A DNA stretch of 64,000 bases, taken from positions 154,287-218,286 of the forward strand of contig JBIIBC010000003.1 of assembly GCA_044239605.1 (NCBI GenBank), written 5' to 3'. Every line of letters starts with the position of its first letter. The first letter of the stretch is position 1. The notes under the pieces were generated by a model that had not been told where the DNA came from, ran no database searches, and saw only the letters and a program-made list of their open reading frames with translations. Shown piece after piece: positions 27,557 to 63,440 of this stretch. This stretch comes from Bacteroidia bacterium (GTDB taxonomy: Bacteria > Bacteroidota > Bacteroidia > UKL13-3). The translations under genes were made by a program, and so were the position numbers.

Positions 27557-27623
27557 AAGTTTTAAAGTTTAAAGAAGTGTTTATGTTTTTTTAAGTGTTA
27601 AAGTGTTTATGTAGCTTTTGTTT
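27557..27623 (+). repeat. Degenerate ~8-nt repeat tract (AAGTGTTA/AAGTTTTA), 5' arm of FHB cassette 1
   Basis: AAGTGTTAAAGT at 27593-27604 is the exact reverse complement of 28031-28042. Confidence 0.7.
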
Positions 27624-27992
27624 ATGAGTAAAATTGACCGTTTTGAAGATTTAGATTGCTGGAAGAAATCAAGAGAGCTGGTGAATTTAATCTTTGATAT
27701 TTGCGAAAATCAAATGAAAAACAAAGATTTTTCTACTCAAGACCAAATAAAAAGAGCAGCATTATCAACTATGAACAATATTGCAGAAGGATTTGGTAGA
27801 TATAGTAATAAAGAGTTTATTCGTTTTTTGGAGTATTCAGCTGCTTCTTCAATGGAAATCAGAAGTATGTTTTATATTTTATCTGACAGAAAATATATTG
27901 ATGAAAATGAATTTGAAAAATGTTACAAACTAACAAATGACCTTACCAATACAACTTTAGGTTTGATTCGATATTTAAAAACAAAAATTTAA
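27624..27992 (+). CDS. Four helix bundle protein (23S rRNA IVS protein / bAvd-like, TIGR02436), copy 1
   Basis: RFEDLDCWKKS, DQIKRAALSTMNNIAEGFGR..KEFIRFL. Confidence 0.92.
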   Translation: MSKIDRFEDLDCWKKSRELVNLIFDICENQMKNKDFSTQDQIKRAALSTMNNIAEGFGRYSNKEFIRFLEYSAASSMEIRSMFYILSDRKYIDENEFEKCYKLTNDLTNTTLGLIRYLKTKI

Positions 27993-28066
27993 CTAAAAGC
28001 ACTAAGAACAAAAAAACTTTGAACTTAAAAACTTTAACACTTGTAAAATAAAGACTTTAACACTCA
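27993..28066 (+). repeat. Complementary tract (ACTTTAACACT x2), 3' arm of FHB cassette 1
   Basis: ACTTTAACACTT at 28031-28042 and ACTTTAACACT at 28054-28064; AAAAGC at 27995-28000 pairs with GCTTTT at 27614-27619. Confidence 0.7.
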
Positions 28067-28072
28067 AAAACA

Positions 28073-29230
28073 ATGGCATTTTACCACAAACAAGGACAAA
28101 TACCCGCTAAAAGACATACGCAATTCAGAAAACCCGATGGCAATTTATATGCTGAAGAATTGGTTTCAACCGAAGGTTTTAGCAGTTTATATTCATTGGT
28201 TTACCACTGTCACCCACCTACTTTGGTTAAGGAAATTGGCGAGGCATATGATATTGGGCCTAAGGCTGCTATCGAAAAGAATCTGCAAAACCGTAGTTTT
28301 TTAACCTTTAAAACTGCTCCAGTTGACGATTATTTAAAAAGTCGTGTGTATACGCTTTTTAATAACGATGTGTATTTGGCTTCGGCTGCACCTCGCAAAA
28401 GCATGACAGATTATTTTTTCAAGAATGCGGATGCTGATGAAGTATTATTTATTCATGAAGGAAGCGGTGTTTTAAAAACAGTTTATGGGCAAATTCCATT
28501 TGAATATGGCGATTATTTGGTAATTCCACGTGGTACCATTTACCAATTGCATTTTGAAACGGAGCAAAATAGGATTTTTATTACTGAATCGTTTTCGCCA
28601 ATCCGTCCACCAAAACGTTATTTAAACCAATATGGACAATTATTGGAGCACTCACCTTATTGCGAGCGCGATATAAAATTACCTGAGCTAAAAGAAACTT
28701 TTGATGAAAAAGGCGACTTTAAGGTTTTAATTAAAAAACAGGATATGATTTTTCCATATACTTATGCCACACATCCTTTTGATGCCATAGGTTGGGATGG
28801 ATTTCAGTATCCATTTGGGTTTAGTATTCATAACTATGAACCAATAACAGGTCGTGTGCACATGCCACCTCCAATTCATCAAACTTTTGAAGGACACAAT
28901 TTTGTAATTTGTTCGTTTGTGCCTCGTTTGTACGATTACCATCCACTTTCAATTCCTGCACCTTATAACCACAGCAATGTGGATAGTGATGAAGTTTTAT
29001 ATTATGTAGATGGAGATTTTATGAGCCGCAAGCACGTAGAACGCGGCATGATAAGTTTGCATCCAAAAGGTATTCCTCATGGTCCGCATCCTGGTACAGT
29101 TGAAAAATCGATTGGAAAATTAGAAACCAAAGAATTAGCTGTAATGATTGATCCATTTTATCCATTAAAAATTACTGAAGCTGCAATGCAAATGGAAGAT
29201 CCTGGTTATTATAAAACTTGGGTGGAGTAA
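28073..29230 (+). CDS. hmgA: Homogentisate 1,2-dioxygenase
   Basis: FFKNADADE, VIPRGT, HPFDAIGWDG, HMPPPIH, PYNHSNVDSDE, HGPHPG. Confidence 0.93.
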   Translation: MAFYHKQGQIPAKRHTQFRKPDGNLYAEELVSTEGFSSLYSLVYHCHPPTLVKEIGEAYDIGPKAAIEKNLQNRSFLTFKTAPVDDYLKSRVYTLFNNDVYLASAAPRKSMTDYFFKNADADEVLFIHEGSGVLKTVYGQIPFEYGDYLVIPRGTIYQLHFETEQNRIFITESFSPIRPPKRYLNQYGQLLEHSPYCERDIKLPELKETFDEKGDFKVLIKKQDMIFPYTYATHPFDAIGWDGFQYPFGFSIHNYEPITGRVHMPPPIHQTFEGHNFVICSFVPRLYDYHPLSIPAPYNHSNVDSDEVLYYVDGDFMSRKHVERGMISLHPKGIPHGPHPGTVEKSIGKLETKELAVMIDPFYPLKITEAAMQMEDPGYYKTWVE

Positions 29231-29231
29231 A

Positions 29232-29266
29232 TGAATTTTGAATGTTAGATTTTGGATGTTGAATGA
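29232..29266 (+). repeat. Five tandem degenerate heptamers directly after the hmgA stop
   Basis: TGAATTT TGAATGT TAGATTT TGGATGT TGAATGA. Confidence 0.75.
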
Positions 29267-29297
29267 TTGTTTGAAAGGATTTGAAAAAAGAATTATT

Positions 29298-29720
29298 ATG
29301 AAAAAAGCTAACTTTTTAAAAGTTTTATTTGCATTATCAATTTGTTTTTTAGGGTGTAAGGAGCAAGTTGGTCCTTGCGGAGACCCAGCTGCGCCTTTTT
29401 TCAGATTGAAAATTATTGACAAATTATCCAATCAAGCTGCTTGTAAAGTTTATGACTCAATTGAATTTAAAAGCCTTTATTCAGTTAAAACAATTAAGTT
29501 TTTGGTATACAAATATTCTTCCGACTCCTCGATTAACTTTAACTTTTCAAAAGGAGATACCATTTTATTTAGATTTGAATCTATTCATAATTTTGATACG
29601 CTAATTTCTTTCAGTACTTCTTTTTCAGGTAATGGAGGTCCTTGTAGCCAAGGAGGTTTAGTATTAGACAGTATTTACCATAACAATAAGAAAGTTGAAA
29701 CGAACACCATTTATTACTAA
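29298..29720 (+). CDS. Hypothetical lipoprotein
   Basis: MKKANFLKVLFALSICFLGC lipobox; start at ATG 29298 preferred because the longer ORF runs through the repeat tract. Confidence 0.65.
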   Translation: MKKANFLKVLFALSICFLGCKEQVGPCGDPAAPFFRLKIIDKLSNQAACKVYDSIEFKSLYSVKTIKFLVYKYSSDSSINFNFSKGDTILFRFESIHNFDTLISFSTSFSGNGGPCSQGGLVLDSIYHNNKKVETNTIYY

Positions 29721-29739
29721 ATTCAAATAAACTGACCAT

Positions 29740-30226
29740 TTGCAAAAAAACTTATCCATAATAAAAGATATAAAAGAAATTATATCCGTTTCGAAAGACA
29801 AAGCCATTAGGGCTGTTGACAATGAGCGGGTGTTGATGTATTGGCATATTGGCAAGCGTATTTTAGAAGAAGAACAAGAAGGAAAAGAAAGAGCGGTTTA
29901 TGGAGAGTATTTAATTAAAACTTTAGCTGAACAATTAGTGCCTGAATATGGAAGTGGATTTTCTATAAGACAATTAGAACTTTGCAGACAGTTTTACCGA
30001 ATTTTTCCAATTGCGAATGCACAGCGTTCGCAATTCAGTTGGACACATTACCGACTATTGATTCGTATAGAAAATGAGGATAAAAGAAGTTTTTATATTG
30101 CTGAAAGCGAAAAGTACAACAGCGATAAACAATCAAACTGTTTTTGCAAGAGAATTCCAATTATATTTGCCAACTGAAAAACAATTGATAGAAGAAATAA
30201 ACAAAGAATTCGATCGAATAAAATAA
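29740..30226 (+). pseudogene. DUF1016/YhcG gene with internal deletion and frameshift
   Basis: N-domain motifs (YWHIGKRI.EEEQ.G..RA.YG, GSGFS, FSWTHY), then in the +1 frame the family C-terminal tail NQTVFAREFQLYLPTEKQL...* ending at 30226. Confidence 0.82.
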
Positions 30227-30230
30227 AACT

Positions 30231-31358
30231 ATGAATACTGAACAAACAACAGAAATGTTACCTCAAACATCAGATTTCCTACCCTTACACGGAACTGATT
30301 TTATTGAATTATATGTAGGAAATGCCAAGCAAGCAGCCCATTTTTACAAAACAGCTTTTGGGTTTCAAAGTTTGGCTTATGCTGGCCCTGAAACAGGCAT
30401 TAAGGATAGAGTAAGTTATGTATTGATACAAAACAAAATGCGTTTAATGCTTACTACTCCCTTGCATTCTAATTCGCCAATTGCGGAGCACCATAAAAAA
30501 CATGGTGATGGTGTTAAAGTATTAGCTTTAATGGTTGATGATGCTTACGATGCATTTGAACAAACTACCAAACGAGGTGGTGTTTCATGTTTAGAACCAA
30601 AAACTTTAAGCGATGCAAATGGCGAAGTGCGCATGAGTGGTATAAAAACATATGGCGAAGTGGAACATTGGTTCATTGAGCGTAAAAATTACAATGGCGT
30701 ATTTATGCCTGGTTTTGTTAAGTGGGAAAGCGCTTATAATCCAGAGCCAACTGGTCTATTGTATGTTGACCATTGCGTAGGAAATGTAGATTGGAATCAA
30801 ATGAATCCTTGGGTTAGTTTCTACGAAAATGTAATGGGCTTTAAAAATATCCTTTCGTTTGATGATAACGATATCAGTACAGAATACTCTGCTTTAATGA
30901 GTAAAGTAATGAGTAATGGAAACGGATATGTTAAATTCCCTATTAATGAGCCTGCAGAAGGTAAAAAGAAAAGCCAAGTAGAAGAATATTTAGAGTTTTA
31001 CGAAGGTGAAGGTGTTCAACATATTGCAATTGCTACACTTGATATAGTTTCAACTGTAAAACAATTAATGGCTCGTGGTGTGGAGTTTTTAAAGGTACCA
31101 AGTAGCTACTACGATGATTTACTAGACCGTGTTGGTCCAATAGAAGAAGACATTGAACCATTAAAAGAATTAGGTATTTTGGTTGATAGAGATGATGAAG
31201 GTTATTTATTACAATTATTTACCAAACCGGTTGAAGATAGACCAACAATGTTTTATGAAATTATTCAACGTAAAGGTGCTAAAAGTTTTGGTAAAGGAAA
31301 CTTTAAAGCCTTATTTGAAGCCATAGAACGCGAGCAAGCAAACAGAGGTAACTTATAG
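30231..31358 (+). CDS. hppD: 4-hydroxyphenylpyruvate dioxygenase
   Basis: VGNAKQAA, HGDGVK, DHCVGNV, PINEPA, GVQHIA, GYLLQLFT, FGKGNFKALF. Confidence 0.97.
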   Translation: MNTEQTTEMLPQTSDFLPLHGTDFIELYVGNAKQAAHFYKTAFGFQSLAYAGPETGIKDRVSYVLIQNKMRLMLTTPLHSNSPIAEHHKKHGDGVKVLALMVDDAYDAFEQTTKRGGVSCLEPKTLSDANGEVRMSGIKTYGEVEHWFIERKNYNGVFMPGFVKWESAYNPEPTGLLYVDHCVGNVDWNQMNPWVSFYENVMGFKNILSFDDNDISTEYSALMSKVMSNGNGYVKFPINEPAEGKKKSQVEEYLEFYEGEGVQHIAIATLDIVSTVKQLMARGVEFLKVPSSYYDDLLDRVGPIEEDIEPLKELGILVDRDDEGYLLQLFTKPVEDRPTMFYEIIQRKGAKSFGKGNFKALFEAIEREQANRGNL

Positions 31359-31506
31359 TTGTCAGTTGATGGTTGTCAGTTGTTGGATATAAAATTTTAA
31401 AATCATAGTTTTATTTTAAATTATTAATAGTATTGTCTAACAACTGTCAACCATCACTTATTAAATATGCTATTCTATCAACTGTCAACTAACAACCATC
31501 AACTAA
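31358..31506 (+). repeat. ORF-less inverted heptamer-repeat cassette between hppD and the LOG gene
   Basis: GTTGTCA GTTGATG GTTGTCA GTTGTTG (31358-31385) versus CAACTGT CAACCAT (31441-31454) and CAACTGT CAACTAA CAACCAT CAACTAA (31479-31506). Confidence 0.85.
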
Positions 31507-31513
31507 AAAAAGT

Positions 31514-32281
31514 ATGGCAAAAAAGAGCATTCCAGAGTTAAGGGCTAAATATTCCAATAGTGAACGTAGGTTTTTAGAAGGTCCACGAAGCCGCAGAAGA
31601 GAATTTATATTTTCTTTTAAAGTTTTGTACGAATTTTTAAAAGGTTTTAGAGCTTTACATTTTGTAGGTCCTTGCGTAACTGTGTTTGGTAGTGCAAGGT
31701 TTAAAGAAGATCATTTTTACTACCAAGAAGCCATGAAAATGGGTGCTGAAATAAGTAAAATTGGCTTTACTGTTATGACTGGTGGAGGTCCTGGAATTAT
31801 GGAAGCTGCTAACCGCGGTGCTTTTGAAGCCAATGGACGTTCAGTGGGTTGTAATATTGTGCTGCCTCACGAACAATCAGAAAATCCTTATGTGCAAAAA
31901 TCAGTTGAGTTTAGGTATTTTTTTGTGCGTAAAACACTTTTGCTTAAATACTCATATGCTTTTGTAATAATGCCTGGCGGTTGGGGAACAATGGATGAAT
32001 TATTTGAGGCACTTACTTTAATTCAAACAGGTAAAATGGAGGAATTTCCAGTCATTATTTTTGGTAAAGAATATTGGAAAAACTTAATTGATTTAATTAA
32101 TGACATGATTGAAAAAGGAACTGTATCACCTGACGATTTAAGGCATTTATTAATTACCGATTCAGTTGATGAAAGCATGGAGTATTTAAAAAAATACAGC
32201 ATCGAAAAATTTAGTTTAAAGCACCGAAAAAGAGTTAAAGCAATGTCTTGGTTGGGTGAACTTATTAAATGGAAAAGGTAA
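31514..32281 (+). CDS. LOG family (TIGR00730) nucleotide phosphoribohydrolase
   Basis: VTVFGSAR, TGGGPGIMEAANRG, YFFVRK, PGGWGTMDELFE. Confidence 0.92.
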   Translation: MAKKSIPELRAKYSNSERRFLEGPRSRRREFIFSFKVLYEFLKGFRALHFVGPCVTVFGSARFKEDHFYYQEAMKMGAEISKIGFTVMTGGGPGIMEAANRGAFEANGRSVGCNIVLPHEQSENPYVQKSVEFRYFFVRKTLLLKYSYAFVIMPGGWGTMDELFEALTLIQTGKMEEFPVIIFGKEYWKNLIDLINDMIEKGTVSPDDLRHLLITDSVDESMEYLKKYSIEKFSLKHRKRVKAMSWLGELIKWKR

Positions 32282-32282
32282 A

Positions 32283-32642
32283 GTGTTAAAATTTATAACT
32301 AATAGAATTAAATCATTTGGCCCTGCATTGAAGGGCCTTTTTTGGTTATTTAAAAATGAAGGCAATGCCCAATTTCATTTAATAGCAACTATAGTTGTAG
32401 TAATAGCAGGATTTTATTTTAAAGTAACCTTATTTGAATGGATTTTATTATGCTTTGCAATAGGTTTGGTTATAACCGCTGAAGCCTTGAATACAGCTAT
32501 TGAAAAAACAATTGATTTATTGCATCCTCAAAAACATGAAAAAGCTGGTTTAGTTAAGGACCTAGCTGCGGCAAGTGTTTTAATTGCATCAATTTTAGCA
32601 ATTATTGTTGGTCTATTAGTTTTTATACAAAAACTTAACTAA
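32283..32642 (+). CDS. dgkA: Diacylglycerol/undecaprenol kinase (DgkA family)
   Basis: E.NAQFH, AEALNTAIEKTID, KDLAAASVL; GTG start at 32283 preferred. Confidence 0.88.
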   Translation: MLKFITNRIKSFGPALKGLFWLFKNEGNAQFHLIATIVVVIAGFYFKVTLFEWILLCFAIGLVITAEALNTAIEKTIDLLHPQKHEKAGLVKDLAAASVLIASILAIIVGLLVFIQKLN

Positions 32643-32845
32643 ATAATATACTTACTAATTTAGCAAAACCCAATGGGAACATATTTTAAGTGTCAAAAAA
32701 GTATGTCCTAAAATCTTAATATTCAAAAAAAGATTATTTTATTTTCGATGATTATAATTTAAGAGCTACAAAAAATTAATTTCATTCAAATGAGACCTTA
32801 ATAATTCAAAAAAAAAGCTCAAGTATTTAAACTCAAGCTTTTTTG

Positions 32846-32919
32846 TCGGGGTGGCAGGATTCGAACCTACGACCTCCACATCCCAAATGTGGCGCGATAC
32901 CAGGCTACGCTACACCCCG
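32846..32919 (-). tRNA. tRNA-Pro(TGG)
   Basis: CGGGGTGTAGCGTAGCCTGGTATCGCG CCACA-TTTGGGA-TGTGG AGGTCGTAGGTTCGAATCCTGCCACCCCGA. Confidence 0.95.
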
Positions 32920-32987
32920 TTTGCAAATTTTTCAAAAGTGCTAAATTTTTGAACTAAGCATTGCTACTCGCCCCCTAAAATTTTGTG

Positions 32988-33076
32988 CGGTGAGAGAGAG
33001 ATTCGAACTCTCGATACACTTTGACGCGTATGTCGGTTTAGCAAACCGGTGGTTTCAGCCGCTCACCCATCTCACC
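32988..33076 (-). tRNA. tRNA-Ser(GCT)
   Basis: GGTGAGATGGGTGAGCGGCTGAAACC..CGGT-TTGCTAA-ACCG, long variable arm, GAGAGTTCGAATCTCTC, TCTCACCG. Confidence 0.95.
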
Positions 33077-33098
33077 AAATGCTTTTTTAAAGGGAGTG

Positions 33099-33106
33099 CA
33101 AATGTA
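33099..33106 (-). promoter_or_regulatory. -7 promoter box of the tRNA-Ser/tRNA-Pro operon
   Basis: TACATTTG on the minus strand, about 22 nt upstream of tRNA-Ser. Confidence 0.6.
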
Positions 33107-33311
33107 GCAAACAAAACTATAATTCAAAATATTTTGGCGAATATTTTTATATTTATTTTTCATAGGTAAAAATAGGTTTTAAGTACACAAAATAAAGCTA
33201 TTGAATATTAATGTATTAGAGTAAGTATTCTGTAAAATTTAATATTCCTAATTTTTGAATAATAATATGCAATAAAAATGTTCGTTAATTAGCAAAAAAT
33301 AAATTGTAGTC

Positions 33312-35918
33312 ATGGCTAAGGATAAAGTTGTTCATTATAAATTTCGCGATTTGAAAATATTTGGTAGTACTGAATGGCTAGCGAACAATGAAAAGAAATA
33401 TAGGCAAGTGTATGATATGTCGGAGTGTACATTCATTTACTGTGAACTTTCGTTTTTCAATAAATTATTTGACGAAAAAGAATGGGATTTAAAAATTAGT
33501 TTAAAATGTGTAAAGCAAGAAGACGGTTCTGAAGTATGTACCTTATCAGCTGATAGAACTATAAAAAAAGACGAAAATATTGTTTATATTAGAGAAGGTT
33601 GGGGTGTAAAAACTCCCGGTACATACTGGAAAAAAGGTACATACCGCTGGGAGGCATGGATAGATGGCGTTTTTATTGCTGAAAAAGAGTTTTATATTGT
33701 AGATGTAGGTTTGGTTACTGAAACCGAAAATCCTTATTTTAATATTAAAACCAATAAATTGTATGAAGGAACTGAAGTTAATGTTCCAAAAGCTGAGCGC
33801 AATTATTTAAGCGCTTTCGATACCAAAGAAACTAGGTATGTTTGGCTAGAAATGATGGCCGAAAATTTGGTAACTACCGGTGAAAAATGGCCCTGCGAAT
33901 TAATATTTAATTTTAAAACACGTTCTGGTCAATTAAAAGGAACAGTGGAAAAGATATTTTTTGTTGATTCAGCTGAACCTGAATTTGAGTGTAGTATTGG
34001 TTGGGGAAGTGATGTAAAAGGTACTTGGGGTTTAGATTATTATACCATTGAAATTATTTTTATGGATCAATTGGTTGCTAGTATTTTATTTGACGTGGGC
34101 ACCGAATTTTTAATTGAACCAAAGGTTAAAGAAATAAAACCAAAAGTAAATAAGCTAATTGAAAAAAATGCATTAGTTGCACCTGCACCTGAAAATATTG
34201 AAGATATAATGAAGGAGCTTGATAACTTAATTGGGCTCGATTCAATAAAAAAGAAGGTTAAAGAATATACTACTTACCTTAATTTTTTGAAAATTAGGAA
34301 AGAAAAAGGCTTTGACGACTCGGAAAAAATTAACTTACATGCAGTTTTTACTGGAAACCCTGGTACTGGAAAAACCACAGTTGCCAAAATGTTAGGCAAA
34401 ATTTATAACCAACTTGGCTTGTTAAGTAAAGGCCATGTAATAGAGGCGGATAGAAGTGATTTAGTTGCAGAATATATTGGACAAACTGCACCAAAAACCA
34501 AAGAAATTATCAAACGTGCAAAAGGTGGAATTTTATTTATTGATGAAGCTTATGCACTGGCTCGTAAAAACGATGATAGTAAAGATTTTGGTAAAGAAGC
34601 CATTGAAATTTTGCTAAAAGAAATGAGCGATGGTGATGGCGACATAGCCATAATTGCTGCGGGTTATCCTGATGAAATGAATAATTTTTTAGAAAGTAAT
34701 CCGGGTATGCGAAGCAGGTTTCAAATGTTTTACGATTTTCCAGATTATTTGCCAAAAGAGTTATTAGCCATAGCTGATTATTCCACTCAAAAACGTGGTA
34801 TTCAATTTAACGAAGCATCAAAAGAATTGATTTTTAAAAAATTAGTGGATGCTTACCGCGATAGAGACCGTATGTTTGGAAATGCTAGGTATGTAAATAA
34901 TTTAATTGACGAATGTAAAATGAATATGGGTTTAAGATTAATGCAATCACCTAATCCTTATGAATTGAGCAATGATGTATTAAGCACTATTGAAACTGTT
35001 GATATTGATAAAGTTTTTGGAATCAAACATAAATCAATTACTGATATTCCGATTGATGAAGAATTATTAACAGCTTCGCTAAATGCATTGCATGGTTTAA
35101 TTGGCTTACAAACAGTTAAAACCGAAATTGATGAGTTGGTTAAATTAGTTCGTTTTTATCGAGAGATTGGTAAAGATGTTCGTCAATCGTTTTCGTTACA
35201 TACAGTATTTACTGGTAATCCAGGTACAGGAAAAACCACTGTTGCACGTATTTTAGCTCAAATTTATAAAGCTTTGGGTATTTTGGAACGTGGTAATTTG
35301 GTAGAATGTGATAGGCAAGATTTAGTAGGAGGTTTTGTGGGGCAAACTGCTTTAAAAACCACTGAAGTGCTTAACAAAGCAATGGGTGGCGTTTTATTTA
35401 TTGATGAAGCTTATGCCTTGAGTGAAGGCGGAGAAAACGATTTTGGTAAAGAAGCTGTTGAAACCATTTTGAAAAAAATGGAAGATTCGAGAGGTGACTT
35501 TATTGTAATTGTAGCTGGTTATACTGATAATATGAAACGCTTTTTAGAAAGCAATCCGGGCCTCAAGAGCAGGTTTGATCGCGAAATGCAGTTTGAAGAT
35601 TACGATGCTCCACAATTACACGATATTGCATTGAAAATGCTTTTAAACAACGGCATTAAACCAACCGATGAAGCATCAAGTCATATTAAACAGTTTTGCG
35701 AATTTTTATACAAAACCCGTAATAAGTTTTTTGGAAATGCACGTAGCGTGAGGAAGGTAGTAGAAGAAGCAATTAAAAACCAACATTTGCGTTTGGCAAA
35801 AACTGAAACTGAAAAACGCACCAAAGAAATGATTTACGAATTGGTACTTGAAGACGTGGAAGAATTTAAAGTTGATCCTAACTTTACAGAGGAGCGTAAA
35901 ACTATTGGATTTAAATAA
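33312..35918 (+). CDS. Double AAA+ ATPase (SpoVK/CbbX/EccA type) with duplicated N-terminal domain
   Basis: Two modules of H.VFTGNPGTGKTTVA / GG.LFIDEAYAL / FGKEA.E / IAAGY or VAGY / SNPG..SRF / FGNAR. Confidence 0.9.
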   Translation: MAKDKVVHYKFRDLKIFGSTEWLANNEKKYRQVYDMSECTFIYCELSFFNKLFDEKEWDLKISLKCVKQEDGSEVCTLSADRTIKKDENIVYIREGWGVKTPGTYWKKGTYRWEAWIDGVFIAEKEFYIVDVGLVTETENPYFNIKTNKLYEGTEVNVPKAERNYLSAFDTKETRYVWLEMMAENLVTTGEKWPCELIFNFKTRSGQLKGTVEKIFFVDSAEPEFECSIGWGSDVKGTWGLDYYTIEIIFMDQLVASILFDVGTEFLIEPKVKEIKPKVNKLIEKNALVAPAPENIEDIMKELDNLIGLDSIKKKVKEYTTYLNFLKIRKEKGFDDSEKINLHAVFTGNPGTGKTTVAKMLGKIYNQLGLLSKGHVIEADRSDLVAEYIGQTAPKTKEIIKRAKGGILFIDEAYALARKNDDSKDFGKEAIEILLKEMSDGDGDIAIIAAGYPDEMNNFLESNPGMRSRFQMFYDFPDYLPKELLAIADYSTQKRGIQFNEASKELIFKKLVDAYRDRDRMFGNARYVNNLIDECKMNMGLRLMQSPNPYELSNDVLSTIETVDIDKVFGIKHKSITDIPIDEELLTASLNALHGLIGLQTVKTEIDELVKLVRFYREIGKDVRQSFSLHTVFTGNPGTGKTTVARILAQIYKALGILERGNLVECDRQDLVGGFVGQTALKTTEVLNKAMGGVLFIDEAYALSEGGENDFGKEAVETILKKMEDSRGDFIVIVAGYTDNMKRFLESNPGLKSRFDREMQFEDYDAPQLHDIALKMLLNNGIKPTDEASSHIKQFCEFLYKTRNKFFGNARSVRKVVEEAIKNQHLRLAKTETEKRTKEMIYELVLEDVEEFKVDPNFTEERKTIGFK

Positions 35919-35921
35919 ATA

Positions 35922-35959
35922 TTAAATGGCTGTTCAACATAAACTGAACAGCCATTTAA
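35922..35959. terminator. Stem-loop between the convergent AAA and HIT genes
   Basis: TTAAATGGCTGTTCA...TGAACAGCCATTTAA. Confidence 0.75.
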
Positions 35960-35983
35960 AGTGATAATACAAACATAAAGTTC

Positions 35984-36376
35984 TTATATAAAAGTGTTTA
36001 TATAATTCGCAATCTTTTGCATTTCATCATCACTTAAGGTGAGTTTTTTATTTAAAAAATTCATATCGTTTACCTCATTTATTGGAATCAAATGAATGTG
36101 CACATGTGGCACTTCTAAACCAATAACAGTGACTCAAATCCGATTACATGTAATAGCCTTTTTCATAGCTATTGCTACTGACTTGGCAAATAAATGAAGG
36201 TGAGTGAACGTTTCCTCATCTAAATCAAAAATATAATCAACTTGTACCTTGGGAATAACCAAAACATGACCTTTTGCAAGTGGGCTTATATCTAAAAAAG
36301 CTAAAAAAGAGTCATTTTCAGCTACCTTGTAACAAGGAATTTGCCCTGCTACTATTTTAGAAAATATACTTTCCAT
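35984..36376 (-). pseudogene. HIT family nucleotide hydrolase interrupted by an in-frame TGA (36134-36136)
   Basis: MESIFSKIVAGQIP...GHVLVIPK...CNRI*VTVIGLEVPHVHIHLIP...NTFI*; the HxHxH motif lies after the stop. Confidence 0.85.
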
Positions 36377-36383
36377 ACAATGA

Positions 36384-36884: not shown

Positions 36885-36915
36885 TTTATATTAGAAATTT
36901 GATACGTTTTATAAC

Positions 36916-36951: not shown

Positions 36952-36975
36952 AAATGATTAAACAAATATATGTAA

Positions 36976-54452: not shown

Positions 54453-54471
54453 ATTATTCTGCTATTTTTTT

Positions 54472-54479
54472 CAAAAGTA
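54472..54479 (-). promoter_or_regulatory. -7 promoter box for recA
   Basis: TACTTTTG on the minus strand, about 20 nt upstream of the ATG. Confidence 0.55.
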
Positions 54480-54551
54480 AGTTTGCAAATCAATCTGCTA
54501 TTATTTATTTATAAACAATTTATAACAGTTTGGTTTTATTATTTATAAAAT

Positions 54552-55811: not shown

Positions 55812-55928
55812 TATTTCAAATAAACGAAAAATAAATCATTTAGCCCATTTTTTAAAGTATTTATTAAACTATAAAAATAAAATTGATTGAATTATTGTTT
55901 TTGTAAAATTACGTACCTAAAATTGAAA

Positions 55929-57308: not shown

Positions 57309-57330
57309 TTTAACTCATAGCATAAATCAC

Positions 57331-59502
57331 TTATTTCCACCCTCCTATCTTCGCAATTTTTTGCTGAATAATTTGATTATTAGCAAGGGTAATTTTTAAC
57401 ACATAAATACCTAAGGGCAAGTATGATAAATTCAGTGTTTTGCTTATGTTATTTTGATGGTAAACCAATTGACCTGCCATATTCGTTATTTCAAGTGTTA
57501 AAGGCTCTTCGGCCATTTCAAGATTTAGTTGATTGGTAAAAGGATTTGGATAAACCAATACATGAGGTTTTTCAATTGATTTTATACTCGTAGCATAAGC
57601 CAATTTAAATGCTTCATATACATTTATTTTACCCCAACCCCAATTATTAGTTGGCACCGCGCCTGTTTTAGCATCTACCCTAGCTGAGTTTTTAAGCATA
57701 GCTAATGCTTTAGCAGGTGTTAACATTCTATCGGCTTGCAGCATTAAAGCAACAGCTCCTGCAACACATGGTGCGGCAAACGAAGTTCCTGCCGACATTA
57801 CCCAATCATACCTAGTTCCATTATAAAAAACCGTATCGGTTATGTCGGTTATATCAAGTGGCGTAAAACTACTAATAGGCCCTCCCACAAAATAACCTGG
57901 AGCAGTAATATCCGGTTTTATTCTATTATCTGTACTTGGCCCGCGGCTTGAAAAACCAGTAATGGTATCTTTTTGCGAAATAGGATCAATGCTTTTGGTT
58001 CCGCCCCAAAAGTTTGTCCAATTAACGTTTGAATTATACGAACCAACTGCAATACTTGCTTTGCTATTAGAACCTGATTCGCCAATGGTGTATTGGTTAT
58101 TTCCCATTATGTAATTGGCTTTTATTGGCTGGTTTACCAAATTAGCTAAAAACTGCGGATAACCTTTGCTCCATTCGTAACCGCAGTTCCAAGCATGTAA
58201 AACCGTATTAGCCGATGTAAATGCAAACGAAACATAGTATTTATTGCAATTGGTATTTTCATAAATAATAAAAATTTCAGGCTTATTGTTATTTACATTT
58301 TCAGCAGTTGAAGTAATAGTATAAGTTAAAGTATCATTGCCAAAATACAAGTAATTACTTTCGTTTACATTGCCAGAGGCACTATAAAAAACACTTTGTG
58401 CTACTTGGTTTTGCAAAGTATCAAGCACCCTCATTTGAATATCAAAATCAGTATTTTCAGCACCCCAAAAGTTTACGGTATTGGTTTCTTTAGGTTTAGG
58501 TTTTCGGGTAAAATTACTAATGGTATAAAAAGTATCGTTTTGTAAATTTTGTTGCAAATGCAATAATTGTTTGCCTTCGTTACCTGCGGCATTTACCAAT
58601 ATTTTACCTGCACCTGTTAAGTTTTCTATTGCTTTATCAAGCAATGTAGTTCCATCGTGAGGACCAGCATGATGGCCCCAACTGATATTAATTACAGCAG
58701 GTTTATTTTGCGAAGCAGCATATTTAAAAATATAATCAATGGCATCAACAAAGGCCGGGCCAGCAGTATTTTTATCGTCTAAAAAAGTTTCGGTTCCATA
58801 ATTTAAAGCTACCAAAACTAAATCGGCATTAGGCGCCATGCCCCTATTGGCATTTCCTTTACCATAAATCCCAGCGCCAGCAGCTATACCTGCTACCATG
58901 GTTCCATGTCCATCGGTTGGCCTATCGGTTTGCGCTGTTTTATAATCAGCTACGGTAGTTAATTCGTTTCCATAATTATACCCAGTAGGCGCTTTTCCAG
59001 TTTTATTTTGTTCCCAAACACGTTTAATTCGGCAATTGCCATTGGCATCAAAAAAGGCAGGATTATTATAATCAAAACCAATATCAATAGCGCCAACTAT
59101 TATTCCATCGCCTTTATAAGCCATTGGTAAATCAATACCTTGATGCACCAAGTTGGTTTTGGTGGCTATCCAATCAGTATCTTGCATTAATGGCATGGCC
59201 GAAAACGATGCTTCTACATATTGCAAACCTTGTAAATCATTTAGCTTTTCTATTGCATAAATAGGAGCTGTTATACTCCAAATATTACCTGCTTTGGTTT
59301 GAACTGTAATGCCTAAATTGGTTAACAACGATTGGTTAAAACTTTTATCAACTTGTATAAGCGCACGCATGTTAATTGCATCTTTAGCTAACGATTTATT
59401 TTTAGCTAAATAAATACGTGTTAAAGGCGAAAGTTTGTTTTGCTGCGCAATGGTATTACTTAGTAAAACTATGCTAATAACAATGGTTAAAAATGATTTC
59501 AT
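57331..59502 (-). CDS. S8 subtilase with T9SS type A CTD
   Basis: Catalytic motifs GAIDIG, HGTMVAGIA and GTSFAAP; AAGNEG; C-terminal VYPNPF...GIYVLKI. Confidence 0.92.
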   Translation of the reverse strand: MKSFLTIVISIVLLSNTIAQQNKLSPLTRIYLAKNKSLAKDAINMRALIQVDKSFNQSLLTNLGITVQTKAGNIWSITAPIYAIEKLNDLQGLQYVEASFSAMPLMQDTDWIATKTNLVHQGIDLPMAYKGDGIIVGAIDIGFDYNNPAFFDANGNCRIKRVWEQNKTGKAPTGYNYGNELTTVADYKTAQTDRPTDGHGTMVAGIAAGAGIYGKGNANRGMAPNADLVLVALNYGTETFLDDKNTAGPAFVDAIDYIFKYAASQNKPAVINISWGHHAGPHDGTTLLDKAIENLTGAGKILVNAAGNEGKQLLHLQQNLQNDTFYTISNFTRKPKPKETNTVNFWGAENTDFDIQMRVLDTLQNQVAQSVFYSASGNVNESNYLYFGNDTLTYTITSTAENVNNNKPEIFIIYENTNCNKYYVSFAFTSANTVLHAWNCGYEWSKGYPQFLANLVNQPIKANYIMGNNQYTIGESGSNSKASIAVGSYNSNVNWTNFWGGTKSIDPISQKDTITGFSSRGPSTDNRIKPDITAPGYFVGGPISSFTPLDITDITDTVFYNGTRYDWVMSAGTSFAAPCVAGAVALMLQADRMLTPAKALAMLKNSARVDAKTGAVPTNNWGWGKINVYEAFKLAYATSIKSIEKPHVLVYPNPFTNQLNLEMAEEPLTLEITNMAGQLVYHQNNISKTLNLSYLPLGIYVLKITLANNQIIQQKIAKIGGWK

Positions 59503-59506
59503 TTGT

Positions 59507-60475
59507 TTATCCAATAATGGCTTTAATAATAAAAAATAAATTGAGTACCATATAACTGATTAGTACAATACGTGCTGCTTTTTTATCTAATTTATTGGCT
59601 CTTTTCAAATGGTTATTTTTAGCCAAGGTTAGAGAGTATACACTTAAAATAATGGTAACTAAAATACCAATAAAAGTTAAAGCGTGCAATGAATCGACCA
59701 AGGTAAAAGTGGAGGTTTCGGGCAAAATAGAATCGATAATATATTTATTACCAACCGCTGCAAATAAAGAGCCTACGCTTAAACCAAAACGTGATTCAAT
59801 ACTATCGGCATGAATAAAAAAACACATGTATGAAATGAAAAACGAAACATACATACATAAAAACAGTTTGAAAAATAAACCCCAAGCACTGCGTTCAATA
59901 AATATTTTCACATTAAAAGAGGCATAACTGGAGCGAGGTTCTTTTAATGAAATATCGCCAAAAGTACTTTCGTAAGTTTGCAAGCCTGTTACCACATCAA
60001 TTTTGCTTATATTCCAACCTGCAATGGTAAGTTCCGGGTCAAAGTGTTTACCAACAGTATCGGCTACAAAAACCAAACTACGCGAATCGAATTGTGAGTT
60101 TTCAATATGTACTTCCAATTGCTGTTTATCGAAAGGGTAATTATGCACACGCCACGATTCTTTCATTACGCATTTCATTTTCATGAGGGTAAATATTTCG
60201 CCATTGCTGGTATCGCTGTAATTATCGGTATTTTCAATTGATTTGGCATTGGGCACTTCTACATTTTTAGCAAAATCGTATTCTGTTTTTTTACACCTAA
60301 ACCATAACCAAAACCTAACAGTATATTCCTTTTGTCTGAAATCAATATCGTGTAAACTAATAAAATAAACACCCACCTTTACTGTATCAGGAACAACAGG
60401 TTCGGTATATGCTTTTACCTTGTTATTAAAAGCAAAAAGGAATATTACAAATAAGAAAACAACTTGTTTTTTCAT
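59507..60475 (-). CDS. Prokaryotic pentameric ligand-gated ion channel homolog
   Basis: Signal peptide; V.VGVYF..L.DID, FWLWF, loop-7 NYPFDKQ.L, pre-M1 R, four TM helices with M2 RFGLSVGSLFAAV and LP...FTLVD. Confidence 0.8.
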   Translation of the reverse strand: MKKQVVFLFVIFLFAFNNKVKAYTEPVVPDTVKVGVYFISLHDIDFRQKEYTVRFWLWFRCKKTEYDFAKNVEVPNAKSIENTDNYSDTSNGEIFTLMKMKCVMKESWRVHNYPFDKQQLEVHIENSQFDSRSLVFVADTVGKHFDPELTIAGWNISKIDVVTGLQTYESTFGDISLKEPRSSYASFNVKIFIERSAWGLFFKLFLCMYVSFFISYMCFFIHADSIESRFGLSVGSLFAAVGNKYIIDSILPETSTFTLVDSLHALTFIGILVTIILSVYSLTLAKNNHLKRANKLDKKAARIVLISYMVLNLFFIIKAIIG

Positions 60476-60629
60476 GAGGTGAAAGTAATATAATCTTAAC
60501 CAACTAAAAAAACTTTCTGCACTTGCTAGTGTGAGTTTAACTAGCGTCCCTCAATTTTATTTTACGCTAAATGATTAGCCGGAGGCTTATTGATATATTC
60601 ACTCGCAAGATACGAGCGAATGCGGTGAT

Positions 60630-60659
60630 AAAAAAAAGGTTGACCTAAGCCAACCTTTT
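60630..60659 (-). terminator. Intrinsic terminator after pntB
   Basis: AAAAAAAAGGTTG-ACCTAAGC-CAACCTTTT. Confidence 0.75.
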
Positions 60660-60692
60660 CGTATAAATAGTATTCAAATTTTTCACGATTCC

Positions 60693-62108
60693 TTACCCTA
60701 AAGCCTTAATTTCACTCACTAATTGAGTCAAAGCTTTTTTTGCATCGCCAAATAACATGCTGGTTTTTGGCTTGTAAAACAATTCGTTTTCAATGCCTGC
60801 GTATCCTGCTTTCATGCTTCGTTTGTTTACTATTACATTTGTTGCATTTTCTACATCCAAAATTGGCATTCCGTAAATAGGTGAAGTAGGATCAGTTTTA
60901 GCTGCAGGATTAACCACATCGTTTGCACCCACTACTAATACTACATCAGTAGTAGCAAACTCAGGGTTTACTTCTTCCATTTCAATTAATTTATCGTAGC
61001 TAACATTACTTTCGGCAAGCAATACATTCATGTGTCCTGGCATACGTCCTGCTACAGGATGAATGGCATATTTTACATCAATGCCTTCCGCTTCTAATAG
61101 CAATTCTAAATCGTGTACAATGTGTTGCGCTTGTGCCACCGCCAATCCATATCCAGGAACAATGATAACTTTTTTAGCATATTTCATTAAAATGGCAGCA
61201 TCGCTTGCAGTTACTTCTTTAACTGTTCCATCAAAATTAGCTGAACCCATAGCTTCGCCAGTGGCACCACCACCAAAGTTTCCAATCAATACATTTACCA
61301 AAGAACGGTTCATGGCTTTACACATTACAATTGTTAGTAATGTTCCGGCAGAACCCACTAAAATACCACCTACCAACATTACTTTGTTATCGTATAAAAA
61401 TCCACCACAAGCCGCAGCCACACCAGTAAATGAGTTTAACAACGAAATTACAACAGGCATATCTGCACCTCCAATTGGCAATACAAACAATACTCCGTAA
61501 ATTAATGATAAAGCGAAAACAGCATAAAATAACTCAGCAGTGTAAGCTGTATTTCCTAATATCATCACTCCTGAAAGCACCAATATTACTAGCAATAAAC
61601 CAATATTGATTAACTGCTGCATACCTAATGATTTGTCTTTTACATTACCGCTTAATTTACCCCAAGCTATGATACTTCCAGCAAACGAAACCGAACCAAT
61701 GATTAAACCCAAAACAATGGTTAGTAAATGTCCAGCAGCTACGGTTGATAAATCAACTTCGGCTAAATGTTTAAACTCTATAATTGAAATAAGCATGGCA
61801 CAAGCGCCACCCATTCCATTGAATAAACTCACCATTTCGGGCATTGCGGTCATTTGTACTTTTTTGGCCACTATCCAACCAACTACAGCTCCAACAGCCA
61901 AAGCCGCAAAAATAAACCCAAGGTTATGCAAATGCGCCCCTGTTTCGGTGGTATATAAAAATATAGTTCCAAAAATGGCTATTACCATACCAAAGGCAGC
62001 CATTAAATTACCCTTGCGCGCAGTGGCAGGATTTCCTAAAAATTTTAAACCTGCAATAAAAGTTACTGAGGCAATAAGGTAGATTATTTGTAGTATGTTA
62101 TTTTCCAT
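60693..62108 (-). CDS. pntB: NAD(P) transhydrogenase subunit beta
   Basis: MTAMPEMV, IGGADMPVVISLLNS, VPGYGLAVAQAQ, HPVAGRMPGHMNVLLAE, GANDVVNP. Confidence 0.97.
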   Translation of the reverse strand: MENNILQIIYLIASVTFIAGLKFLGNPATARKGNLMAAFGMVIAIFGTIFLYTTETGAHLHNLGFIFAALAVGAVVGWIVAKKVQMTAMPEMVSLFNGMGGACAMLISIIEFKHLAEVDLSTVAAGHLLTIVLGLIIGSVSFAGSIIAWGKLSGNVKDKSLGMQQLINIGLLLVILVLSGVMILGNTAYTAELFYAVFALSLIYGVLFVLPIGGADMPVVISLLNSFTGVAAACGGFLYDNKVMLVGGILVGSAGTLLTIVMCKAMNRSLVNVLIGNFGGGATGEAMGSANFDGTVKEVTASDAAILMKYAKKVIIVPGYGLAVAQAQHIVHDLELLLEAEGIDVKYAIHPVAGRMPGHMNVLLAESNVSYDKLIEMEEVNPEFATTDVVLVVGANDVVNPAAKTDPTSPIYGMPILDVENATNVIVNKRSMKAGYAGIENELFYKPKTSMLFGDAKKALTQLVSEIKALG

Positions 62109-62177
62109 AAATTCGAAATTTAAAATTCGAAATTCGAAAGATATTTAGAAAATTCTAAGCTCGAAATTCGAAAATTT
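62109..62177 (-). repeat. AAATTCG heptamer tract, 3' arm of FHB cassette 2, abutting the pntB ATG
   Basis: AAATTCG AAATTTA AAATTCG AAATTCG ... AAATTCT AAGCTCG AAATTCG. Confidence 0.85.
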
Positions 62178-62196
62178 ATTTTGTGTTTTTTACTTT

Positions 62197-62565
62197 TTAT
62201 TTTTTTGTTAAATTTTTTAAAATAGACCCAAAAATCAACATCAATTCATGAGATTCCTGAATTAACTTTATTCTTTCTGATTCTAATATTTCATTATTTT
62301 CTGTATCAACTAATCGTAACCAAAACTTACTTTCTTTAGCTTCTTTTCTGCAAATTCTAACTTTCATTAGTTTGTCTTTTTCACCAAGGCTATCATTGGC
62401 TTCAATGTAATTTGCACCAACAGAACCAGATGAGCGAACTAGTTGCTTTCCATCTTCTATATTATTTATATTTCTTGGAAGTTTTTTAATAAAAAACCTA
62501 ACTTTAAGAGCAAACTGAAAAGTTCGTTCTTCTAAATCATATATTTTATTTACTTCTTCTTTCAA
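62197..62565 (-). CDS. Four helix bundle protein (TIGR02436), copy 2
   Basis: YDLEERTFQFA, KQLVRSSGSVGANYIEA, ICRKEAKESKFWL. Confidence 0.92.
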   Translation of the reverse strand: MKEEVNKIYDLEERTFQFALKVRFFIKKLPRNINNIEDGKQLVRSSGSVGANYIEANDSLGEKDKLMKVRICRKEAKESKFWLRLVDTENNEILESERIKLIQESHELMLIFGSILKNLTKK

Positions 62566-62586
62566 TTCTAGATTATTTATAAATTC

Positions 62587-62639
62587 TTCGAATTTCGGAT
62601 TTATTTTTTTCGAATTTCGTACTTAATTATTCGAATTTA
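62587..62639 (-). repeat. CGAATTT heptamer tract, 5' arm of FHB cassette 2
   Basis: CGAATTT CGGATTT ... CGAATTT CGTACTT ... CGAATTT, the reverse complement of AAATTCG. Confidence 0.85.
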
Positions 62640-62644
62640 AAGCC

Positions 62645-62938
62645 TTACTTTTTCTTCTTAAACATTTCCAGCATCCTATCGGTTACTACAAAGCCGCCTA
62701 CTACGTTAAGTGTTCCTAATACCACAGCTAAAAAACCAAGTATTAATGAAGCAACGTGTTCTGCTTGTCCCATTACAATAATAGAACCTATAATTACTAC
62801 GCCATGTATGGCATTAGCACCACTCATTAAGGGTGTATGTAAAACTGATGGCACATGGCCAATTAATTCAATACCTACAAATATCATTAAGATAATGAGG
62901 TAAAACATTTCGATGTGTTGGGTGATGAATGTTAACAT
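62645..62938 (-). CDS. pntA: NAD(P) transhydrogenase subunit alpha, membrane part (PntAB)
   Basis: VPSVLHTPLMSGANAIHG, NVVGGFVVTDRMLEMFK. Confidence 0.95.
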   Translation of the reverse strand: MLTFITQHIEMFYLIILMIFVGIELIGHVPSVLHTPLMSGANAIHGVVIIGSIIVMGQAEHVASLILGFLAVVLGTLNVVGGFVVTDRMLEMFKKKK

Positions 62939-62955
62939 ATTTTTATTTATGATTT

Positions 62956-63011
62956 TTGACTTGTTGATTATTAAATTTATTGATTGGGAGATTTAAAGAT
63001 TTGTTAATTTT
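62956..63011 (-). repeat. Period-8 tract (nnGATTnn), 3' arm of FHB cassette 3
   Basis: TTGACTTG TTGATTAT TAAATTTA TTGATTGG GAGATTTA AAGATTTG TTAATTTT. Confidence 0.75.
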
Positions 63012-63014
63012 ATT

Positions 63015-63386
63015 CTATTTATTTAATTTCATTGTTTTTCTTGATGCCGCCATAATTGATAATATTTCAAGCGCTTCTTGATGTAATTTTTTTGTTTTAT
63101 CATCTTTATTTATTTCAGATTCTATAATGATTTCCAACCATAATAAAGTTTCGTCAGCTTCTTCAACTACGATACTTAATTTAGAGAAAAACTCAGCATC
63201 AGACCTTGCCCTACATACTGCTCTATAATTTGCGGCTACTGATGTTGCAGAACGCAATAATTGTTTTCCAATTATTTTTGCTTCTTCCGTTTTAGGTAAA
63301 TTTCTATAAAATTTAACTATTTCAACTGCAAACAATTTTGTTCTTAATTTCAATTTATCGGCTGTCATCTTTTCATTATTCATCAT
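63015..63386 (-). CDS. Four helix bundle protein (TIGR02436), copy 3
   Basis: LKLRTKLFA, KQLLRSATSVAANYRAVCRARS..EFFSKL.IVVEEADET..WLE. Confidence 0.93.
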   Translation of the reverse strand: MMNNEKMTADKLKLRTKLFAVEIVKFYRNLPKTEEAKIIGKQLLRSATSVAANYRAVCRARSDAEFFSKLSIVVEEADETLLWLEIIIESEINKDDKTKKLHQEALEILSIMAASRKTMKLNK

Positions 63387-63392
63387 TTTCTT

Positions 63393-63440
63393 AATAATTA
63401 AATCAATAATTCAAAAAATCTCAAAATCTATAAATTGAAG
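63393..63440 (-). repeat. Period-8 tract (AATCnnnA), 5' arm of FHB cassette 3
   Basis: AATAATTA AATCAATA ATTCAAAA AATCTCAA AATCTATA AATTGAAG. Confidence 0.75.

Follow-up and report, generated by a model that had tools for sequence, protein, structure and literature searches.

PF05635 four-helix-bundle genes lie between complementary tandem-repeat arms at operon junctions, in an arrangement resembling rRNA intervening sequences

Genes of the PF05635/TIGR02436 family are annotated by the thousands as "four helix bundle protein," and to our knowledge they have no known role. We analyzed a stretch of 64,000 nucleotides (nt) from a Bacteroidia bacterium (assembly GCA_044239605.1, contig JBIIBC010000003.1, positions 154,287 to 218,286 of the forward strand; hereafter, the window) that carries three such genes, iv0, ivA, and ivB, and we followed their arrangement through the whole genome (hereafter, the host genome), related genomes, and other phyla. 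Each gene lies between two complementary arms made of short tandem repeats, and the resulting cassette fills the gap between two co-oriented genes, in most cases with linked functions, and reaches from the stop codon of the first to the start codon of the second. The complementarity of the arms is maintained while their sequence turns over, and the same design of stem and tandem units encloses PF05635 genes in housekeeping operons across several phyla. On balance, we lean toward reading these elements as cassettes of the intervening-sequence type that are lodged in mRNA instead of rRNA and whose arms pair in the transcript.

The window genes scored 107.9 (iv0), 41.2 (ivB), and 59.1 (ivA) bits against PF05635 (cut-off, 33.8 bits) and 101.9, 64.5, and 87.5 bits, respectively, against TIGR02436 (cut-off, 24 bits). 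These matches and the neighbors hmgA, hppD, and pnt agree with the original prediction, made from the DNA letters, that three TIGR02436 genes sit co-oriented inside operons; the transhydrogenase operon reads pntAA, ivA, pntAB, ivB, pntB. The features concerned are as follows.

27556..27612, plus strand: 5' arm of cassette 1, units AAAGTTT / AAGTGTTA, C-poor
27624..27992, plus strand: iv0, PF05635/TIGR02436 four-helix-bundle gene, with ATG at 27624 and an alternative TTG at 27618; first gene, followed by hmgA
28006..28071, plus strand: 3' arm of cassette 1, terminating 1 nt short of the hmgA ATG (28073)
28073-29230, plus strand: hmgA, neighbor gene
29231..29270, plus strand: lone 5'-type arm of TGAATKT units, beginning at the hmgA stop codon
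30231-31358, plus strand: hppD, neighbor gene
31356..31509, plus strand: hppD/LOG arm-loop-arm hairpin without an open reading frame (ORF), filling the junction; it begins at the TAG stop (31356) and ends just 5' of the ATG (31514), and its parts are a 5' arm (31356-31387), an inner 3' copy (31436-31456), and an outer 3' arm (31475-31509)
60693..62108, minus strand: pntB, host gene
62108..62178, minus strand: 3' arm of ivB, unit AAATTCG/CGAATTT, abutting the pntB start codon (62108)
62197..62565, minus strand: ivB, PF05635/TIGR02436 gene between pntAB and pntB
62572..62641, minus strand: 5' arm of ivB, directly following the pntAB stop codon (62645-62647)
62645..62938, minus strand: pntAB, host gene, alpha-2 subunit with four transmembrane segments
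62953..63014, minus strand: 3' arm of ivA, complement of TAAATCAA-type units, preceding the pntAB start (62938)
63015..63386, minus strand: ivA, PF05635/TIGR02436 gene between pntAA and pntAB
63396..63439, minus strand: 5' arm of ivA, period 8, 4.6 copies, starting at the pntAA stop codon (63442-63444)

Tandem units were located with Tandem Repeats Finder (TRF) and inverted arms with an inverted-repeat finder, and the two together bear out that each cassette has a tandem repeat upstream and its reverse complement downstream. According to TRF, the arrays of the window have periods of 7 or 8, and also of 14 and 22, with approximately 2.5 to 6.4 copies: period 7 at 62109-62139 (AAATTCG, 4.4 copies), 31357-31383 (AGTTGTC, with a period-14 reading, GTTGTCAGTTGATG), and 31475-31505 (CTATCAA), period 8 at 63399-63435 (TAAATCAA, 4.6 copies) and 28022-28071 (6.4 copies), and period 22 at 62582-62638. 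The inverted arms measure 24 to 44 nt, are 75 to 91% complementary, and span approximately 400 to 460 nt; they pair 27587-27612 with 28023-28048 around iv0 (26 nt, 85% complementary), 62108-62144 with 62603-62639 around ivB (37 nt, 78%), and 62971-63014 with 63396-63439 around ivA (44 nt, 75%). The predicted ORF-less pair at the hppD/LOG junction was recovered as well (31359-31382 with 31486-31509; 24 nt, 88%), as was the lone arm at the hmgA stop codon. The unit family of this lone arm is that of the korA/korB cassette arms (score of 43 against the kor 5' arm), and no partner for it was found before hppD, where the score of 18 equals background. Rfam, searched at the gathering score, matched only two tRNAs in the window and none of the arms.

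The host genome contains 11 PF05635 genes, all of which adjoin protein-coding genes and all of which show the arm design by eye. The filled junctions are pntAA/pntAB/pntB, korA/korB, nrdB/nrdA, paaA/paaB, ABC ATPase/permease, serC/serA, fcl/gmd, czcA/x, a split metH, and the head of the hmgA operon, and the gene downstream of the cassette is co-oriented in 11/11 cases. An arm score was computed by local alignment, at the DNA level, of the 150 nt preceding a gene with the 150 nt following it, the latter taken as reverse complement. The 11 genes scored 25 to 48, compared with a mean of 19.5 (standard deviation [SD], 3.8) for 2641 crude control genes; a score of at least 33 was reached by 9/11 PF05635 genes versus 18/2641 controls, the few high-scoring controls being of a different nature, among them a RAYT gene with palindromes of the repetitive extragenic palindromic (REP) type and a GIY-YIG gene. 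With flanks of 120 nt, z scores against mononucleotide shuffles ranged from 3.9 to 11.7 in 10 of the 11 genes, and pairings of 5' and 3' arms taken from different cassettes averaged 18, with 1/110 reaching 36. The best autocorrelation lag was 7, 8, or 14 in 60/80 arms versus approximately 20 expected from 2634 intergenic controls. Complementary arms with units of 7 or 8 nt had already been noted for the window genes in the original prediction. Two other approaches were less informative. When RNAduplex was applied to 120-nt flanks, its energies failed to distinguish cassettes from controls, since arms rich in A+U pair weakly compared with flanks that are coding; a genome-wide scan for inverted repeats by clusters of 9-mer seeds, excessively noisy and strict alike, recovered only 3/11 cassettes. 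With their 40 to 70 nt, their A+T richness, and their end at a start codon, the arms are unlike an intrinsic terminator; no terminator-like site was called on those in 60500-64000 by a sigma-70/terminator scan, which is uninformative for the promoters of this phylum.

The unit is specific to the cassette, as had been proposed, and covaries with the protein lineage. Within a protein lineage, noncognate arms score 35.2 versus 36.7 for cognate arms, whereas noncognate arms from different lineages score 18.0 (SD, 3.9), which is background. The order and number of units turn over fast, proteins 95.8% identical having arms that share only 4% of their 7-mers, and the 5' arm of ivB orthologues shows an indel in unit number. 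When deeper lineages are compared at one junction, the units are different, and each is mirrored in both arms.

Six ORF-less hairpins, at grpE/dnaJ, sufB/sufC, hppD/LOG, lepA/lipB, nuoD/nuoE, and gdh/mscS, were picked by eye among the top hairpins of the host genome, in which 59/1117 intergenic regions hold hairpins scoring at least 30, most of them terminators. Of the eight ORF-less arms, six have a unit that recurs in one, and only one, gene-bearing cassette at another place in the genome, with scores of 34 to 51 versus a background of approximately 21 (SD, 4). The nuoD/nuoE hairpin, which has the unit of the kor cassette, was aligned across 14 genomes and contains a long-range helix of 15 pairs, in which 96.1% of the cells are paired and compensatory change is seen at 4 pairs. 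The covariation score of 0.192 compares with 0.117 in shuffles, 0/500 of which reach it, and pairing falls to 20 to 53% when the partners are slid; one-sided changes, mostly to G.U and several of them from one misaligned row, were given no weight. Together, the co-change of arms between lineages and the compensatory changes in this ORF-less hairpin argue that arm pairing is under selection.

The nuoD/nuoE hairpin is kept in 15/17 genomes, at least 6 of which have an empty korA/korB junction. The idea that a cognate protein is needed for the ORF-less hairpins found no support, the nuo hairpin persisting without the kor cassette. In some genomes and not in others, a G+C-rich palindrome of approximately 16 nt (TCCCG..CGGGA) stands right after the nuoD stop codon (L132:2032-2174, which is C67 of the host genome; L135, L142, and L143), and L126 has it within its kor 3' arm; the palindrome resembles an independent mini-insert.

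The composition of the arms has a direction. The 5' arm is rich in G, U, and A and nearly free of C, and the complementary 3' arm is nearly free of G. In a cross-phylum sample described below, 5'G:3'C pairs exceed 5'C:3'G pairs in 51/51 arm-bearing cassettes (430 versus 32 pairs), whereas control hairpins in convergent intergenic gaps of the host genome gave 60 versus 77; the polarity is weaker in the genus sample (220 versus 119), partly because some units are palindromic. Such polarity points to something read 5' to 3', as is expected of an RNA device and not of a DNA site. Since it is identical on either strand, it does not indicate the strand that folds. In the minimum-free-energy folds, each of the three window cassettes is closed by pairing of the 5' arm with the 3' arm.

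The design extends well beyond the host genome. Arms were found at the best locus of 26/29 related genomes (z of at least 4), and a profile of the ivA subfamily provided 80 loci in named genomes, 79 of them scorable, spanning Sphingobacteriales, Cytophagales, Bacteroidales, Flavobacteriales, Ignavibacteria, Calditrichota, Acidobacteriota, Chloroflexota, and Balneolaceae. Scores of at least 33 were obtained for 51/79 of these cross-phylum loci versus 9% of 880 noncognate pairings, the G+C-rich Acidobacteriota being among the groups in which the design recurs, and the gene downstream of the cassette is co-oriented at 67/79 loci. That arms occur only where both neighbors are co-oriented was considered and is not supported by the orientation counts of this sample. 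Arms were also present at 3/5 cyanobacterial plasmid loci and at 1 Riemerella locus; the cyanobacterial plasmid arms oppose purine-rich to pyrimidine-rich sequence (GGGAAAAGGG versus CCCTTTTCCC; GAGGAGATAAGGAG versus its complement). In cyanobacteria, short tandemly repeated repetitive (STRR) sequences are tandem heptamers in intergenic DNA, and the cyanobacterial cassette arms are such arrays; no link between STRR sequences and the PF05635 family was found in the literature searched.

Two of the cyanobacterial plasmid genes lie inside cas operons, between cas10 and cmr3 in Picosynechococcus (L109) and between cas6 and cas4 in Pseudanabaena (L110). An association of the PF05635 family with CRISPR loci has been reported (PMC10910872, figure legend); hitchhiking at operon junctions, a possible trivial reason, may explain part of it.

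The junctions themselves were compared in relatives, with 30 loci around pntAB, of which 17 belong to the host genus. The two pnt junctions, A and B, are minimal in most other genera and families, where 5 to 46 nt (e.g., TAATG or TAAGTCATG) form a tightly coupled site; a hairpin-only state of 93 to 125 nt is found in 3/17 (junction A) and 4/17 (junction B) loci of the genus, and a filled state of approximately 470 to 660 nt is found in 14/17 and 13/17, respectively. No PF05635 gene was detectable at junction A of L018 (645 nt) and L022 (657 nt). Unrelated protein types (30 to 36% identical) occupy the same pnt junction in different species of the host genus, and at junction A, a locus of another family has a protein 65% identical to ivA. 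The korA/korB junction is filled in 7/16 genus genomes (one with a frameshift, one followed by a PIN/antitoxin pair), truly minimal in 7/16, two of them with an overlapping stop/start TAATG, and occupied by a PIN pair only in 2/16; no target-site duplication was visible between filled and empty korA/korB. The hppD/LOG junction holds a 161-nt hairpin, a variant of 128 to 143 nt, or a tight palindrome of 55 to 60 nt followed by a T run, and was never seen filled among the relatives compared.

Flanks are homologous, at the same junction, in 105/105 protein pairs at least 70% identical, and the 11 paralogues of the host genome are at most 48% identical to each other, so the cassettes are long-term residents of their junctions. 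The comparison thus divides the proposal that cassettes are gained and lost at gene junctions: polymorphism between minimal, hairpin-only, and filled states was found, and units that move were not, the cassettes being, as far as the sequences indicate, lost or replaced in place without recent movement. A dN/dS ratio of 0.05 to 0.09 in four orthologue groups (dS, 0.4 to 0.8), calculated from protein-guided codon alignments, places the cassette proteins under strong purifying selection. RNA sequencing runs contained only small shares of the window. Contigs from RNA libraries, which derive from relatives 90 to 95% identical, show cassettes colinear with the pnt genes, and one of 3529 nt contains pntAA, a different insert of 547 nt, pntAB, 128 nt, and pntB.

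An AlphaFold2 model of ivB has four helices with a mean confidence (pLDDT) of 92.3. Its best PDB matches by Foldseek were 2RLD (TMq, 0.72 to 0.79) and 2GSC, with further matches to Avd (4DWL; TMq, 0.70) and to the ribonucleoprotein entries 8UBE and 8UB7 of diversity-generating retroelements (DGRs), and iv0 matches 2GSC by sequence (E value, 1.2e-9). The solved relatives 2GSC and 2RLD have five chains each, and PMC4990558 describes a homopentameric ring. No catalytic domain was found in the cassette proteins by profile or structure match. These matches uphold the kinship with the rRNA intervening sequence (IVS) protein and Avd that the original prediction had stated for the family. Among the closest known systems is the IVS of 23S rRNA, known from Coxiella, Leptospira, Xanthomonas, and Brucella. 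For Coxiella, PMC4990558 reports a terminal stem of 28 bp, an S23p ORF in its loop, tandem heptamers in the 5' region (two or three, depending on the strain), and excision by RNase III.

In the mRNA-level reading, each cassette is a promoterless PF05635 (S23p/Avd-like) gene whose surrounding arms, with roughly 4 to 6 degenerate tandem copies of a lineage-specific unit of 7 to 8 nt, make up a long imperfect stem that has the gene in its loop. Pairing of the arms in the polycistronic transcript would loop out the insert, so that the operon would tolerate 0.5 kb of additional sequence. The upstream stop codon and the downstream start codon would meet at the base of one stem, which may insulate or couple translation across the junction. 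The C-free 5' arm would be rich in stop codons and a poor loading site for Rho, and the G-free 3' arm would offer no ATG, GTG, or TTG and would be hidden by pairing once made. By analogy with the 23S rRNA IVS, the stem is probably also a substrate of RNase III, the gene of which (rnc) is present in the host genome, and a cut would free the cassette gene as its own RNA. Our most likely guess for the protein is a ring, as in its pentameric solved relatives, that binds the tandem units of an arm; binding of its own repeat would be compatible with the lineage specificity of the units. A more ambitious version, which we regard as unlikely, would make the cassette a pan-bacterial and ancient device in which an Avd-like ring reads its own stem, one unit per subunit, and the stem serves as an insulator or a shunt inside any highly transcribed RNA, be it an rRNA helix or a junction of coupled genes; the rRNA IVS and the DGR Avd would be offshoots, and the ORF-less hairpins would be served in trans.

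Several observations weigh against pairing and function in the mRNA. The fold energies of whole cassettes have z values of -3.8, -1.3, and +0.3 against shuffles and are clearly better only for ivB. Mispairs in the arms comprise 32 of G.U type versus 74 of A.C type, with A:A the commonest, in a sense strand whose enrichment in A confounds the count; G.U-type mispairs are not enriched, and mispair counts therefore lend no support to pairing of the sense-strand RNA. Of the cross-phylum loci, 28/79 score below 33, and in the same sample arms are present regardless of the orientation of the upstream neighbor, so that coupling of one host gene to another is not a condition for them. In cyanobacteria, one case has heptamer arrays that are direct instead of inverted, and another has no arms. 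The meeting of stop and start codons at the base of the stem may be a trivial consequence of inserting into a junction that is very short, and the RNA-library contigs, being those of relatives, speak for colinearity only and are uninformative on ends, strand, and processing. The binding of each protein to its own repeat is opposed by the nuoD/nuoE hairpin, which keeps the kor unit in at least 6 genomes with an empty korA/korB junction. Last, the Coxiella S23p protein is reported as probably not made (PMC4990558); the function there may differ.

Much of the same evidence was weighed under a DNA-level mobile element, an explanation to which we give a small but real chance. The arms would then be terminal inverted repeats composed of subterminal binding sites, the protein would be the element's own factor binding DNA or single-stranded DNA, and the ORF-less hairpins would resemble miniature inverted-repeat transposable elements. 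The three states of orthologous junctions, the unrelated proteins at one pnt junction within a genus, and the ORF-less arms that match exactly one cassette elsewhere would all fit, and a transposon origin has been raised for rRNA IVSs in PMC4990558. Against it stand the fixed junctions of all 105 close protein pairs, the divergence of the 11 paralogues, which leaves no near-identical copies at different sites, the lack of a target-site duplication at filled versus empty korA/korB, and a protein without a catalytic domain. In agreement with the predicted lack of transposition genes nearby, the window gave no match to an integrase, a Y1 transposase, or an rve transposase (PF00589, PF01797, PF00665), other transposase families not having been searched; the nearest PF00589 match lies at C3:135994, and no reverse transcriptase (PF00078) was matched in the whole host genome, which is 99.9% complete. 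The dN/dS values over the observed dS fit a long-resident gene, and a strict polarity of G then C in the arms has no obvious reason at the DNA level.

A host-serving regulator, in which a TRAP-like RNA-binding ring would read its own arms and the ORF-less hairpins of the same unit and so control small regulons, appears somewhat less probable still. Strong purifying selection, conservation of the unit type in each protein lineage, units that ORF-less hairpins have in common with a cassette of their genome, long residence at fixed junctions, and a count of approximately 4 to 6 units per arm versus the pentamers of 2GSC and 2RLD are in its favor. However, the kor-unit hairpin at nuoD/nuoE outlives the kor cassette, the loci paired by a common unit (paa with grpE-dnaJ, metH with suf, and fcl-gmd with gdh-mscS) have no functional logic, and cassettes are often lost without replacement; moreover, paralogues 40 to 48% identical have unrelated units, so binding specificity would have to change fast. 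That the arms are ordinary attenuator hairpins or terminators that flank small genes by coincidence, or chance products of AT-rich low-complexity intergenic DNA, is very improbable, and the controls refute it as far as computation allows. The host genome is AT-rich, most of its 59 hairpin-bearing intergenic regions hold terminators, and the hppD/LOG junction in one of its states shows a tight palindrome ahead of a T run, but none of this accounts for the enrichment of 9/11 versus 18/2641, for cognate arms far above noncognate ones, for the dominance of periods 7, 8, or 14, for recurrence across phyla up to the G+C-rich Acidobacteriota, for a polarity absent from control hairpins, or for the pnt-region arms, on which no terminator-like site was called.

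The mRNA-level reading gains definition from comparison with known systems. Like the 23S rRNA IVS, the cassettes have the same protein family in the loop, complementary termini as the stem, 5' tandem heptamers of variable copy number (PMC4990558), and an ORF without its own promoter. Unlike it, their host RNA is a polycistronic mRNA and not helix 45 or 25 of 23S rRNA, the 23S rRNA gene of the host genome (C9:82853-85340) having no large insert; their proteins are under strong purifying selection, whereas the Coxiella S23p ORF is reported as decaying (PMC4990558); and excision by RNase III has been shown only in rRNA. PF05635 is also the family that matches Avd, according to PMC10053308, and the bacterial Avd (bAvd) of DGRs shares with the cassettes its fold and the presence of repeats flanking the gene. 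The cassette repeats, however, are inverted arms of short units, whereas the template and variable repeats of DGRs are direct and exceed 100 bp; by eye, the flanks of the window genes hold only short-unit arms, no dedicated search for direct repeats having been made, and no target gene is evident here.

Integron cassettes resemble ours as promoterless, small, co-oriented ORFs expressed by read-through and accompanied by imperfect palindromes whose structure is kept and whose sequence varies. The attC site is a single palindrome at the 3' end of each integron cassette, whereas here complementary halves flank the ORF on both sides, no integrase matched in the window, and the cassettes occur one by one, dispersed over housekeeping operons and fixed at their junctions. 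REP sequences, bacterial interspersed mosaic elements, and intercistronic stem-loops are likewise hairpins between co-transcribed genes and shape operon mRNA; the REP-like palindromes of the host genome, with their RAYT, are another sequence class, and cassette arms are lineage-specific tandem 7- to 8-mers that enclose a gene. In the 35S leader of cauliflower mosaic virus, ribosomes shunt over a stem, an arrangement that the cassettes call to mind because the base of their large stem is closely preceded by a stop codon and closely followed by a start codon; we know of no ribosome shunting in bacteria.

The design appears not to have been described before outside rRNA: no account of it was found in the literature searched, which did not cover older papers on Leptospira and Salmonella IVSs, in keeping with the original prediction, which knew of no functional description of the arm architecture. 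rRNA IVSs have been an unexplained curiosity for decades. With its polarity, co-changing arms, and strongly conserved protein, the family becomes a defined, testable system, and its arms are precise RNAs for questions of binding and of RNase III cleavage. The cassettes offer a natural example of a 0.5-kb insert tolerated between translationally coupled genes, suggest an origin for the DGR Avd, and may provide portable insulators for operon engineering.

Some further features of the cassettes and junctions deserve mention. Downstream of one cassette, the methionine synthase gene (C83:31017-33701) covers the metH model only from position 341 to 1232 and hence seems to be split, the cassette lying at the break; contig C83 ends just upstream of it. 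Three cassette genes are broken with their arms kept (C38:24915-25274, the ivB orthologue of L012, and the kor cassette of G008), the lesions being one in-frame TAA, one in-frame TGA, and one frameshift. In L110, the direct arrays (1054-1203 and 1564-1713) comprise approximately 14 copies of CTAAAAG upstream and 9 of CCAAAAG downstream. The terminator-like hppD/LOG palindrome, a near-perfect one with the unit GACCATGG, occurs in L062, L066-L069, L071, L073, L074, and L076, and its unit resembles the cassette arms of L055 and L056. Toxin-antitoxin-like pairs stand at the same operon junctions, upstream of korB in L117-L119 and upstream of nuoE in L144 and L147; named by eye, they combine a 78-aa protein with a PIN-like one or a nucleotidyltransferase-like with a HEPN-like one, both without arms.

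Other repeats and genes lie close by. A RAYT-like gene of the IS200 type (C26:37438-38493) is flanked by G+C-rich palindromes, and REP-like GGTTGGTG..CACCAACC elements, a repeat class distinct from the arms, are found in several intergenic regions, including those of C69/C3. A tblastn search of iv0 against phage records gave no match. The hmgA/hppD junction of the window contains a lipoprotein-like ORF with a signal-peptide-like start (29299-29720) and an ORF of 145 aa (29740-30177) that matches only the N-terminal domain of DUF1016; in relatives, this junction measures from 16 nt to approximately 1350 nt, and its content varies. Two tRNA genes are located at 32846-33076 on the minus strand, directly downstream of the LOG-family gene.

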